Below are positions 11,298 through 43,336 of a DNA stretch of 64,000 nucleotides, piece by piece. Position numbers and translations under genes: made by a program. The DNA comes from Escherichia coli O127:H6 str. E2348/69 (lineage in GTDB: Bacteria > Pseudomonadota > Gammaproteobacteria > Enterobacterales > Enterobacteriaceae). Every line of letters starts with the position of its first letter. Within the stretch, counting starts at the first letter, position 1. Below the pieces are notes generated by a model. It was not told the origin of the DNA, searched no databases, and saw nothing but the letters and a program-made list of their open reading frames with translations. The stretch lies in NCBI RefSeq assembly GCF_000026545.1, contig NC_011601.1; one strand, 5' to 3'.

Positions 11298-12224
11298 TTA
11301 CGCCTCCTCCAGCAGATCCTGAAAATGCAGCGTGCCGCAAGGCTCGCCCTGCGTGTTCACCACCGGCAGCACCTCGCATCCCCGCGCGACAAACAGAGAA
11401 AGCGCATCGCGTAGCGTCATCTCTTCTGCCAGCGCCTCACCTTCTGCCCGTTCTTCGCGACGCACGTAATCTGCCACGCTACGTAACGAAAGCAGGCGTA
11501 CACCCAGCTCACTACGACCAAAAAACTGGCGGACAAAATCATTCGCCGGACGAGTCAGCATCGTCAGCGGATTACCCTGCTGCACCACTTCACCGTGATC
11601 CATCAATACAAGATGTTCTGCCAGCCGTAGCGCCTCATCAATATCATGAGTGACCAGCACAATAGTGCGCCCCTGCAAACGGTGAATGCGCGTCATCTCT
11701 TGTTGCAACGCGCCACGCGTTACCGGGTCCAGCGCGCCGAATGGTTCATCCATCAGCAAGACTTGCGGATCGGCAGCCAGCGCGCGGGCCACTCCCACAC
11801 GTTGCTGCTGACCGCCGGAAAGCTGATGCGGATAACGCTCACGCAAATCCGGCTCCAGCCCCAGTAGCGCCATTAATTCGTCGATACGATCGTCGATCCG
11901 CGCCCGTGACCATTTTTGCAATTGCGGCACGGTGGCGATGTTTTGTGCCACGCTCCAGTGGGGAAACAGGCCAATAGATTGAATGGCATAGCCCATCCGG
12001 CGGCGCAACTCCAGTACTGGCAGCGAGCGAATTTCTTCTCCGGCAAAGCGGATCACCCCGCTGTCATGCTCCACCAGGCGGTTAATCATTTTCAGGGTAG
12101 TGGATTTACCGGAACCCGACGTGCCAATCAGTACCGAAAAACTCCCTTCCTGAAAATTGAGATTGAGATCGTTAACGGCTTTTTGTGCGCCGAACAGTTT
12201 GCTGACATGGCTAAATTCAATCAT
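11298..12224 (-). CDS. yehX: ABC transporter ATP-binding protein
   Basis: Walker [13 protein letters not shown] signature LSGGQQQR and Walker B LLMDEP are all present; 308 aa. Confidence 0.92.
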
Positions 12225-28645: not shown

Positions 28646-28730
28646 TATTTTCCCTTTTCTGTTAATTATTGAGAATAATTATTACTTCACTCAATAAGCT
28701 GCGGATATAACATTCTGAACCGCAGCTATT

Positions 28731-39583: not shown

Positions 39584-41575
39584 TCAGAAGCGATAATCCA
39601 CTGCCATAAAGTAACGACGTCCGTCTTCGTTATAGCTGTAGTCGTCACGACTGAGATCCTTGTCGCCAAGGTTCAGCACGCCTGCGCGCAGTTTGACGTC
39701 TTTAGTTACCTGCCAGGCCGCACCGGTATTCCAGATGGTATAACCGCCCGGAGTTTTAGCCGTCGCGCTGTCGGCGCGTTTCTGCCCGGTATAGTGACCA
39801 GAAACATAGAATGACCAGTCTTCCAGCGCCAGCGGTTTCCAGTCCAGCGTACCGTTAGCAGTATGGAACGGCAGATCGGATAGCGGTTTGTTTTCGCCGT
39901 TGCTGACATCACGACCATCGTTGTAGGTGTAGTTGATCGACAGTTTCCATTCATCGTTGAACGGAATTTTCAGTTCGGTTTCCACGCCCTGAATACGAGC
40001 TTTGTTAACGTTGTAGTAGCTAAATACCGGTATGCGCCGTCCGTTAGCGCCCGTCTCAAAACCGACAAAGTTTTGGTAGCCCGGTGCAGCGTTGACGTCA
40101 GACGTACGGCTGATGCTGATACGATCTTTCACATCGTTACGGAAAACGGTAACGCTGGATTCAACCCCTTCCAGCCAGCCTTCTTCACCCATGTAGTAAA
40201 GCCCCAGCTCCCAACTTTCGCTGGTTTCTGGTTTCAGATCCGGGCTACCCACAATCTTACATGCGCCACGGCAGGAATTGCTCGTCCAGTCAGGGCTAAG
40301 TTGCAACAGAGAAGGTGCTTTAAATGCCGTCGCCCAGCCCCCTTTCACCGTTACGGTGTCGGTGGCGTTATAAACCAGGTAGGCACGCGGACTCCAGTGT
40401 TCACCGTAGGTTTCGTGATCGTCCATACGCACGCCGGTCGTCAGCGCCAGCGGCTCGAAGATCCGCCATTCATCTTCCACAAACAGCGCGTACTGGCTGG
40501 CAGACGTTTTGGAGCTGGTTCCCCCGGTCAGGTTCACCGCATCGCTAAGTTTGTCGTGACGCCATTCACCGCCAACCGTGAGAAACTGATTAATCGCCGT
40601 CAGCGGCAACGTGTATTTGCCGTCGACCGTATTGCTTTCGGAAGTTATCGGGCTGCTGTTGCCAGGGTTTTTGTTCTCGATTTTCTCACCGTAGTATTTC
40701 AGTTCGCTGGTGCCGTAATCCCAACGCCCATTATGGCTGACGGAGTAGTTCTGGCGTTCCAGGCGGTTTTTGTCCAGCGAGTCGGAATCACGATCCTGAC
40801 GGTCGAAACCGTATCCGGCAGTAAAATCGTGATTTTGATTCGGTGTCCAGGCAAATTCGACATTGCCGTCGCGGCTGGAGAATCCTTCAATACGCGGCGT
40901 TTCTCCGGTATCGGTGGTTGTTGAGTTTTGCGGGTCATCCTTTTCACGTTTTGCCAGGCTGCCGTAAGCTTTCATTCCCAGCACGCCGTCAATTAATGGT
41001 CCGCTGGTAAAGAATTGACCGTTATAGGTATCACCGCGATCGCGATGTTCCTGAACGGTGGTATCGACGGTAACGGTGCCCGACCATTTCTGACCGATTT
41101 TTTTGGTGATGATATTCACTACACCGCCGAGCGCATCGGAACCGTACAGCGACGACATCGGGCCACGGACCACTTCAATACGTTCGATGGAATCGACAGG
41201 GATCCAGTTCAGATCGAAATCATTGTGGCGGAAGACGGCATTGCGGGAGTTAACGCGTTTACCGTCGACAAGAATCAGGGTGTAGCTGCTGTCCAGACCA
41301 CGAATACTTACGCCCTTACGGTTATCCCCTTCGTTCGTCAGTTGTACGCCAGGCACTTCTTTGAGGACATCCTCCAGATTCTGTACCGGTTTTCGCTGCA
41401 GGTCTTCCTGGGTAATGACGCTGATACTGGCGGGAGCATCTTTAAGGTTTTGTTCAACGGAAGATGCAGTGACAACCATCGTTTCGCCATCATCATCGAC
41501 CGCTAACACAGGCCATGCACAAGAAATAGCGGACAAACACAGCCCGACCCGTACGAAAGGGTTCAACCTAAACAT
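39584..41575 (-). CDS. cirA: TonB-dependent outer-membrane catecholate siderophore / colicin receptor
   Basis: 663 aa from [25 protein letters not shown] (signal peptide); C-terminus ends in the TonB-dependent-receptor terminal Phe; the track ORF runs 65 codons further upstream through the leader. Confidence 0.9.
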
Positions 41576-41739
41576 TCCATATCTCCATGAGGTAACTACG
41601 AAAATAAAATGGGTATCGCTCACATCTTCTTTACGTCCCCTTGCGTACGGCAGCATCGCGGTGGACTTATTTGTATGCAGGTGATCATCCCAGAAAGCCG
41701 GAACAGCCTCTGATTTGTCAGCCTTTTTTGATTGCGGCG

Positions 41740-41772
41740 TAACGATAATGCAAACGATAACAATTATCAATC
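41740..41772. promoter_or_regulatory. Fur-box-like AT-rich repeat in the cirA promoter region
   Basis: AACGATAATGCAAACGATAACAATTATCAATCC contains GATAAT / ATAAC / ATTATC hexamers typical of Fur sites; cirA is a classic Fur target. Confidence 0.55.
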
Positions 41773-41823
41773 CAAATGTTAAATTTTATATCAGCATGAT
41801 TTGTCAGGGAAATGGAATTGAAA

Positions 41824-41847
41824 AAGCCCTCTCGGTTGAGAGGGCTT
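41824..41847 (-). terminator. Rho-independent terminator of lysP
   Basis: Stem GCCCTCTC / GAGAGGGC with a 4-nt loop, followed on the minus strand by UUUUUCAAUU. Confidence 0.8.
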
Positions 41848-41866
41848 AGCAAGGAAGCGAGGAAAC

Positions 41867-43336
41867 TTATTTCTTATCGTTCTGCGGGAACTTCATTTCG
41901 CTGTAGCGTACGAAGTGAGTTCCTTTAATCAGCTTGTAGCCGAACCAAATAATCAGGAACAGCGGGATACCAATATACGTTGCCGCTACGCCGCCCCAGT
42001 CAATGGTATCTTTCAGGAACGCTTCGTAGTTCTGGCCCAAAGTGATAATCAGACACAGAATGAATGCGAAGATCGGCCCCAGTGGGAAGAAACCTGAACG
42101 GTACGGCAGATCGTTAATGTCGTGTCCCTGCAATACGTAACCGCGACGGAAGCGATAGTGGCTAATGGCAATCCCCAGCCAGGCGATAAAACCCGTCATC
42201 CCGGAGGTGTTCAGCAGCCACAGGTATACCGTCTGGTTGCCAAACATGGAGGTCAGGAAGCACAAACCGGCAATCACCGTCGTCGCATACAGCGCATTAC
42301 GCGGCACGCCACCACGCGACAGTTTAGCGAAAATGCGCGGCGCTTTACCGTCACACGCCAGGGTATACAGCATACGAGTAGACGCATACATACCGGAGTT
42401 ACCTGCTGACAGCACTGCCGTCAGAATAACTGCGTTCATCACCGCCGCCGCAGAGAGCAGACCCGCGTGCTGGAACACCAGGGTGAACGGACTGACGCTG
42501 ATGTCTTTAACATCGTTACGCAGCAGGCTCGGATCGGTATACGGAATAATCAGGCTGATAATCAGGATCGCGAACACATAGAACAACAGGATTCGCCAGA
42601 ATACCTGACGTACCGCGCGTGGAATGTTTTTCGCCGGATCTTCGGACTCGCCTGCAGCAATACCGATCAGCTCGGTTCCCTGGAAAGAGAAGCCGACAAT
42701 CATAGCTACGCCGATCATCGCCGCAAAACCACCAGCAAACGGCGCTTCGCCGATTGTCCAGTTGCTCCAGCCTGCAGGCTGCGCGCCTTTGAAGATACCG
42801 ATAATCATCAGCACGCCAACGATGATAAAGACAATAACTGTCGTGACTTTGATCAGTGAGAACCAGTATTCCGCTTCACCAAAGCCGCGAACAGAGATGT
42901 AGTTCAACAGGAAGATAACGCCGAGGAACAACGCACTCCAGATCCAGCCCGGTGTATCCGGGAACCACCAGCTCATGACCAGCTGTGCTGCAACCAGGTC
43001 AACGGCAATAGTCACCGCCCAGTTGTACCAGTAGTTCCAGCCCAGCGCGAAGCCAAAGCCTTCTTCAACATAGTTCTGACCGTAAGTGGCAAACGAACCG
43101 GAAACCGGCATATATGCAGCCAGTTCACCGAGACTGGTCATCAGGAAGTAAACCATCAGGCCAATCAGCATATACGAGAGCAATGCCCCGCCCGGACCTG
43201 CCTGAGAAATCGTTGCGCCAGAGGCAACAAAAAGACCTGTACCGATGGAACCGCCAATGGCAATCATCGTCAGGTGACGCGCCTTCAATTCACGGCGTAA
43301 GCCCGGCGCTTCTGTAGTTTTAGTTTCGGAACCCAT
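41867..43336 (-). CDS. lysP: Lysine-specific permease (APC family)
   Basis: 489 aa multi-pass ORF. Confidence 0.92.
   Translation of the reverse strand: MGSETKTTEAPGLRRELKARHLTMIAIGGSIGTGLFVASGATISQAGPGGALLSYMLIGLMVYFLMTSLGELAAYMPVSGSFATYGQNYVEEGFGFALGWNYWYNWAVTIAVDLVAAQLVMSWWFPDTPGWIWSALFLGVIFLLNYISVRGFGEAEYWFSLIKVTTVIVFIIVGVLMIIGIFKGAQPAGWSNWTIGEAPFAGGFAAMIGVAMIVGFSFQGTELIGIAAGESEDPAKNIPRAVRQVFWRILLFYVFAILIISLIIPYTDPSLLRNDVKDISVSPFTLVFQHAGLLSAAAVMNAVILTAVLSAGNSGMYASTRMLYTLACDGKAPRIFAKLSRGGVPRNALYATTVIAGLCFLTSMFGNQTVYLWLLNTSGMTGFIAWLGIAISHYRFRRGYVLQGHDINDLPYRSGFFPLGPIFAFILCLIITLGQNYEAFLKDTIDWGGVAATYIGIPLFLIIWFGYKLIKGTHFVRYSEMKFPQNDKK

Follow-up and report, generated by a model that had tools for sequence, protein, structure and literature searches.

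The lysP–cirA spacer of Escherichia coli O127:H6 E2348/69 as the known regulatory region of cirA

The spacer between lysP and cirA in Escherichia coli O127:H6 str. E2348/69 can be identified, with a probability of about nine in ten for the account as a whole, with the cirA control region already described for E. coli. Regulation through the cirA leader has been worked out in detail in E. coli K-12, and the locus holds nothing new in this respect. The spacer was analyzed within a stretch of 64,000 nucleotides from contig NC_011601.1, referred to here as the window. Both the list of open reading frames and the RefSeq annotation place the two genes on the minus strand, lysP (lysine permease; NCBIfam PRK10836, 1080 bits) at 43336..41867 and cirA (catecholate siderophore and colicin Ia/Ib receptor; NCBIfam equivalog NF007478) at 41575..39584. 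Their RefSeq neighbors are yeiE upstream and yeiG downstream. The spacer occupies positions 41576–41866, which at 291 nt agrees with the approximately 290 bp given in an initial annotation of this DNA, and its K-12 counterpart measures 293 nt. A segment of 601 nt spanning the spacer is 100% identical to E2348/69, and 5425 of 5426 complete E. coli genomes contain it. Residues 1–663 of CirA align to positions 1–663 of the 663-position NF007478 profile (1456 bits), and because the equivalog profile is aligned end to end from it, the annotated start needs no extension. On the lysP side, a terminator scan identified the lysP intrinsic terminator, AAGCCCTCTC-AACC-GAGAGGGCTT plus a T-rich tail (41814..41847, minus strand). 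Its 10-bp stem at 41847..41824 includes 6 G-C pairs, closes on a 4-nt loop and is followed by a T run, in keeping with the initial annotation, which had set the Fur-like repeat next to the lysP terminator.

Two promoters have been mapped for K-12 cirA, p1 producing a leader of 173 nt and p2 one of 160 nt (Griggs, Tharp and Konisky 1987, as relayed in PMC2588501). A promoter scan of the window located the corresponding elements on the minus strand. P1 (41754..41782) is composed of a -35 hexamer TTAACA (41782..41777), a 17-nt spacer with a TGn motif and a -10 hexamer TATCGT (41759..41754). P2 (41742..41770) is composed of TTGATA (41770..41765), a 17-nt spacer and TATCGT (41747..41742). The K-12 start at -173 transfers to an A at 41746, 8 nt past the P1 -10 hexamer, and the start at -160 transfers to an A at 41733, 9 nt past the P2 -10 hexamer. 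With the K-12 lengths transferred in this way, the 5′ untranslated leader of cirA would be 171 nt from P1 (41576..41746, minus strand) and 158 nt from P2 (41733), rather than 173 and 160 nt, because the window has two 1-nt deletions within the leader.

A long leader had been postulated in the initial annotation, and it is supported by the published K-12 starts, as PMC2588501 reports them, and by the fit of the window's promoter hexamers to those positions. The same relayed mapping places the starts far from the ATG and not within a few tens of nucleotides of it. The alternative is that the Fur-like repeat upstream of cirA arose by chance in AT-rich sequence, or has to do with the processing of the lysP 3′ end, and that the cirA promoter is located near the ATG and generates a short leader. 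Such an arrangement is at odds with the K-12 starts at -173 and -160 relayed in PMC2588501 and with the scan, which shows no minus-strand promoter-like site from 41742 to the cirA ATG. It is also at odds with the behavior of cirA fusions lacking -149..-54, which are still expressed (PMC2588501); therefore the promoter must be upstream of -149.

What can be said in favor of a chance repeat is that consensus scans alone are weak evidence and that the 19-mer Fur consensus is poorly matched. Allowing up to 3 mismatches, this consensus had no match, and the cirA box fits it at 13 of 19 positions (6 mismatches), a mediocre match. Compared with the 7-1-7 consensus, the box has 2 mismatches, a level at which there were 2 matches in the 64 kb while 0.30 were expected. 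Searching with a degenerate version of the CirA plug motif, one genome per species, yielded 88 loci, from which 75 distinct upstream regions were extracted. The core of the box, ATTGATAAT, is unchanged in 25 of 25 aligned orthologous promoters from 25 genera or species, an invariance that rules out a chance match, and in most of them the spacing to the ATG is kept too. We consider the chance repeat with a short leader to be extremely improbable.

The Fur box, identified by consensus and conservation, reads GATAAT-t-GTTATC-gtttgc-ATTATC on the minus strand and lies over P1 and P2 at 41768..41744, 169–193 nt upstream of the cirA ATG. The Fur-box-like repeat that had been placed at 41740–41772, some 170–200 bp upstream of the ATG, is thus confirmed and narrowed to 41744–41768. 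The box spans the P1 -10 hexamer (41759..41754), the P1 start (about 41746) and both the -35 and -10 hexamers of P2; it is an operator over both promoters and lies outside the leader proper. K-12 and other Escherichia share the 25-mer unchanged, and most genera have related sites at -174..-209. Fur-like sites are present in most of the 75 upstream regions, mostly at 175–210 nt from the ATG. Escherichia, Salmonella, Klebsiella, Kluyvera, Raoultella and others have the box at -174..-209, and it is nearer to the ATG (about -116..-170) in Atlantibacter, Pseudescherichia, Cedecea, Buttiauxella and two Citrobacter loci. Fur is reported to repress cirA and to be bound upstream of the gene in vivo (PMC4676285; repression also in PMC2588501). 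The second 7-1-7 match in the window, TGAGAATAATTATTA at 28670–28684 on the plus strand, also has 2 mismatches; it is located in the preT–yeiS intergenic region and is compatible with chance (0.30 expected per window).

The 3′ part of the leader is where small RNAs act. RyhB activates cirA directly, as demonstrated with compensatory mutants (PMC4666370). The pairing site was delimited in the window by the predicted duplex, the published mutants and conservation (41615..41638, minus strand), with the core UGUGAGC at 41624..41618. The site GAAGAUGUGAGCG (around -54..-42) and the core (about -49) are intact, and GAAGATGTGAGCG, the experimentally validated RyhB site, is present exactly at -54. RyhB nucleotides 40–59 are predicted to form a duplex with 41638..41615 at -19.5 to -19.7 kcal/mol. 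The mutagenic oligonucleotide used in PMC4666370 changed the bracketed TGTG of GAAGA[TGTG]AGCG to GTAT, and a compensatory ryhB allele was used alongside it; in the window the altered bases are 41624..41621, within the predicted duplex. The RyhB seed GCUCACA has TGTGAG as its complement, and 64 of the 75 leaders carry this hexamer at -70..-40, against a background of 0.007 per leader.

According to Salvail 2013, as summarized in PMC5006887, PMC4148430, PMC5286369 and PMC5418344, Hfq bound to a translational enhancer of cirA blocks translation, and RyhB pairs upstream, restructures the cirA 5′ UTR and stops Hfq from binding. Reading of the window sequence points to the A/U-rich stretch AUUUUAUUUU (41601..41610, minus strand) as a candidate for this Hfq-bound enhancer. 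The stretch sits between the RyhB site and the ribosome-binding site, and a U-rich tract is conserved at that place.

The OmrA/B site, UACCUCAUGG (-19..-10), is found at 41594..41585 and is identical to that of K-12. It overlaps the Shine-Dalgarno GGAG (41586..41583), so that the element defined by the published mutants and the predicted duplex covers 41583..41594 on the minus strand and can be read as UACCUCAUGGAG, the OmrA/B site fused to the Shine-Dalgarno sequence. OmrA and OmrB repress cirA in an Hfq-dependent manner by pairing within -35..-10, of which -19..-10 suffices, as supported by compensatory mutations; this control was kept after deletion of -149..-54 and lost after deletion of -149..-21 (PMC2588501). 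Nucleotides 2–10 of OmrA/B are predicted to form a 9-bp duplex with UACCUCAUGG at -12.7 kcal/mol. Among the 75 Enterobacterales cirA leaders ACCUCAUGGAG is nearly invariant, and ACCTCATGGAG is found exactly, at about -18, in most of the 75 upstream regions, those of Pantoea and Mixta included. A third regulator, the island-encoded EHEC small RNA Esr41, also represses cirA (PMC5286369). Small-RNA regulation of the leader, suggested in the initial annotation on general grounds, is therefore published for OmrA/B (PMC2588501), for RyhB with Hfq (PMC4666370; Salvail 2013 as summarized in the sources above) and for Esr41 (PMC5286369).

The pairing prediction proposed along with that suggestion gave a divided answer. 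RyhB and OmrA/B duplexes were predicted at the published sites, and their energies were no better than those of shuffled leaders: in windowed calculations, 15 of 40 shuffles were at least as good for RyhB, 22 of 40 for OmrA and 33 of 40 for OmrB. Since the duplex energies match those of shuffled leaders, the case for small-RNA pairing rests on the published mutants and on conservation. Full-length RNAduplex prediction of small RNA–target pairs was also tried and discarded; it produced meaningless full-length duplexes. A separate observation concerns the start codon itself. A GGAA motif (41576–41579 plus the start codon, minus strand) directly precedes and overlaps the AUG, and most orthologs have GGAATG or GAAATG there. 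Mutating GGAA at the cirA AUG increased expression 3- to 8-fold, and a decoy Shine-Dalgarno was proposed (Guillier and Gottesman, PMC2588501).

Judging from the sequences compared, conservation across the family extends to the long leader as well as to its three modules near the 3′ end. One locus in the sample deserves a remark. The record CACSKA010000001.1 (L085), titled Chryseobacterium sp. 18061, carries an Enterobacteriaceae-type cirA locus with the conserved leader blocks; its leader shares long identical stretches with that of Citrobacter sp. 18056 (L056), and its Fur box is set back from the ATG by about 60 nt more. Contamination or mislabelling of this assembly is probable.

The window allele is not identical to that of K-12. 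The leader has 1-nt deletions at 41615/41616 and about 41678 (minus strand), there are three substitutions in the spacer, and the RyhB core has an A/G change and one of the deletions at its flanks. The predicted RyhB duplex is -19.7 kcal/mol for the window allele versus -22.1 for K-12. We infer K-12-like behavior for this allele of the E2348/69 type, both 1-nt deletions and the A/G change included.

One of these deletions has a consequence for the reading frame upstream of cirA. The ATG at 41656..41654 (minus strand) is 27 codons (81 nt) upstream of the cirA ATG and in frame with it, and the cirA frame is open from a stop at 41788 and holds TTG 41770, ATG 41656 and GTG 41623. The initial annotation was correct about an in-frame upstream ATG; the open reading frame to which it referred does not end at this ATG and extends to TTG 41770. 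The open frame invites the idea that translation truly begins at ATG 41656 or TTG 41770, so that CirA would have an N-terminal extension or a regulatory upstream frame would be fused to cirA. Comparison of offsets speaks against it. The K-12 equivalent of ATG 41656 has an offset of 82 nt, which puts it out of frame, and a peptide of 29 aa would start there. The cirA frame of K-12-like Escherichia contains a TGA 16 codons upstream, and in other Escherichia a stop is found 10–16 codons upstream; the window's 1-nt deletion beside the RyhB core (GCGAT-ACCC) takes that TGA out of the cirA frame. The 81-nt stretch bearing this deletion, which opens the frame, is identical in only 1310 of 5424 E. coli genomes (about 24%). 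In 4113 genomes (about 76%) the stretch is 95–99% identical, and among the matches listed all span 82 nt like K-12. Other evidence is also contrary to initiation upstream: reading of the sequence identified no Shine-Dalgarno sequence before ATG 41656, the extension would bury the CirA signal peptide, profile positions 1–663 match residues 1–663 from the annotated start, and TTG 41770 is upstream of both mapped start sites. A functional upstream start is hardly credible. The upstream ATG was judged non-functional, and the open upstream frame is an accident of this lineage caused by the 1-nt deletion, the ATG itself being of no significance.

The length of the leader also raises the idea of a self-contained structured sensor, which would respond to a ligand or to temperature (as a riboswitch or a thermosensor would) and would not serve as a platform for RNAs acting in trans. 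Also in favor of such a device is a hairpin with a CAAnGUA loop, immediately 5′ of the RyhB site, which was located by alignment (columns 26–32 with 49–55 of alignment A1; about -85..-60 in most genera; about 41636–41670 in the window, minus strand) and shows compensatory changes across genera in 7 of 7 pairs. When this hairpin was evaluated together with a GUGAG:CUCAU helix, 84.7% of the cells could pair (74.6% for the hairpin alone), compared with 28–50% in slid controls. The E. coli sequence, however, fits the CAAnGUA-loop helix poorly. Furthermore, no Rfam family came near threshold, either for this spacer or for its ortholog from Klebsiella, the best hits being terminator-like noise at 25 bits against a gathering score of 55 bits. 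The 201-nt 5′ region of the transcript (the leader plus the first 30 nt of cirA) has an ordinary folding energy, with z = +0.55 and 150 of 200 shuffles at least as stable, which rules out an unusual stability of the leader. RNAalifold applied to 42 leaders produced almost no consensus structure, just the invariant GUGAG:CUCAU pairing, and the conserved single-stranded blocks coincide with the validated small-RNA sites. A self-contained sensor is thus very unlikely, and the leader is better read as a platform for small RNAs.

An anti-Shine-Dalgarno hairpin, in which the GUGAG of the RyhB site would pair with the CUCAU beside the Shine-Dalgarno sequence, was considered and rejected as a simple mechanism. 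Its mean pairing probability was 0.013 in partition-function calculations on 61 leaders, and blocking the RyhB site left the accessibility of the Shine-Dalgarno sequence unchanged (Wilcoxon p = 0.93). The minimum-free-energy fold of the E. coli leader joins the RyhB site to +2..+11 and the A/U tract to the Shine-Dalgarno sequence; this predicted fold would be compatible with remodelling by RyhB. Two further observations were made on the folded leader. The CAAUGU variant of the hairpin loop is complementary to the ACAUUG repeats in RyhB, and other loop variants are not. In the predicted fold, CCGUACG at -75..-69 of the leader (41644–41650, minus strand) pairs perfectly with CGUACGG at +21..+27 of the coding region (41549–41555, minus strand); this would be a long-range contact from the 5′ UTR into the coding sequence, but it is without statistical support and may be coincidental.

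Positions 41746–41655 (about -171 to -80) make up the 5′ half of the leader. This half lies upstream of the RyhB site, and it is dispensable for OmrA/B control because the -149..-54 deletion leaves that control intact (PMC2588501). In many other Enterobacteriaceae this half carries the conserved blocks GGAUGAAGCCAC ... GACCAGCCACAUCUGC and an A-run, a domain that can be written as GGAUGAAGCCAC...CAGCCACAUCUGC in the orthologous cirA leaders and that the alignments place at about 11430–11520 in one such locus, L089. The first block, GGATGAAGCCAC, is present in 23 of the 75 orthologous leaders (Klebsiella, Kluyvera, Raoultella, Yokenella, Pluralibacter and others). The second, CAGCCACATCTGC / GACCAGCCACATCTGC, follows 41–56 nt 3′ of GGATGAAGCCAC in 19 of the 75 and precedes the A-run, and the four Kluyvera-type leaders among the 23 are without it. 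Frames that open at the ATG in the GGATGAAGCCAC block begin MKP(L/I/F)(P/S/L) and vary widely in length (8 to more than 40 aa). The E. coli counterpart of these blocks, AAAGGCUGACA...GAUCACCUGCAUACAAA at 41725..41672 (minus strand), has diverged, and the minimum-free-energy fold predicts for it a hairpin followed by an A-rich run. Sequence-based alignment gave no consensus structure for the 5′ half, and Rfam gave no match to it. The regulators described in the cited cirA literature account for neither the 5′-half blocks nor the CAAnGUA hairpin. That the 5′ half carries a further post-transcriptional element is a tentative idea, which we rate as rather unlikely. The cirA leader opens no new question, with the possible exception of this 5′ half.

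The elements described suggest the following sequence of events. Transcription of lysP would end at its own intrinsic terminator, and about 30 nt further on the overlapping sigma-70 promoters P1 and P2 would direct that of cirA. When iron is sufficient, Fe2+-Fur bound to the box over the -35 and -10 elements would block cirA transcription. The transcripts made from these promoters would bear a leader of about 171 or 158 nt, the 3′ end of which would present three modules, the RyhB site UGUGAGC, the A/U tract and the OmrA/B site with the Shine-Dalgarno sequence UACCUCAUGGAG. In the published account, Hfq bound to the leader represses translation. Once Fur is inactive, RyhB is made, pairs upstream, remodels the leader, relieves the repression by Hfq and stabilizes the mRNA. 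Repression comes from OmrA/B, and in EHEC from Esr41, through pairing in or close to the ribosome-binding site. The present analysis established the sequence elements, where they lie, that they equal the K-12 sites tested by experiment, and how far they are conserved; the start sites, the binding of Fur and the effects of the small RNAs and Hfq come from published work.

The spacer has the architecture of the E. coli K-12 cirA region and a nearly identical sequence, with an identical Fur 25-mer, GAAGAUGUGAGCG, A/U tract and OmrA/B–Shine-Dalgarno element; the differences are leaders of 171/158 nt instead of 173/160 nt and the loss from the cirA frame of the TGA that is in frame in K-12. The shiA mRNA is another relative of this system, and there RyhB is described as opening an inhibitory hairpin by the classical anti-antisense mechanism. 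Unlike at shiA, the repressor displaced at cirA is Hfq, and the folding test gave a simple anti-Shine-Dalgarno hairpin no support. As in cirA, RyhB pairs upstream of the ribosome-binding site in the shiA 5′ UTR and raises translation, and shiA is the other mRNA reported to be translationally activated by RyhB (PMC4666370). As described in PMC11979758 and PMC2588501, fepA and other Fur-repressed genes for TonB-dependent receptors that OmrA/B also target resemble cirA in having a Fur-controlled promoter and small-RNA pairing near the translation initiation region; compared with those genes as described there, cirA adds a positive RyhB input and an unusually long leader.

As a whole, the locus served as a positive control, in that a long regulated leader was correctly predicted from a reading of the sequence alone. 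CirA imports catecholate siderophores and is the entry gate for colicins Ia and Ib, as well as for siderophore-conjugated antibiotics. The level of cirA expression therefore sets both iron uptake and toxin sensitivity. The cirA leader is a textbook integration of the Fur signal with upregulation by RyhB and downregulation by OmrA/B and Esr41, through Hfq.
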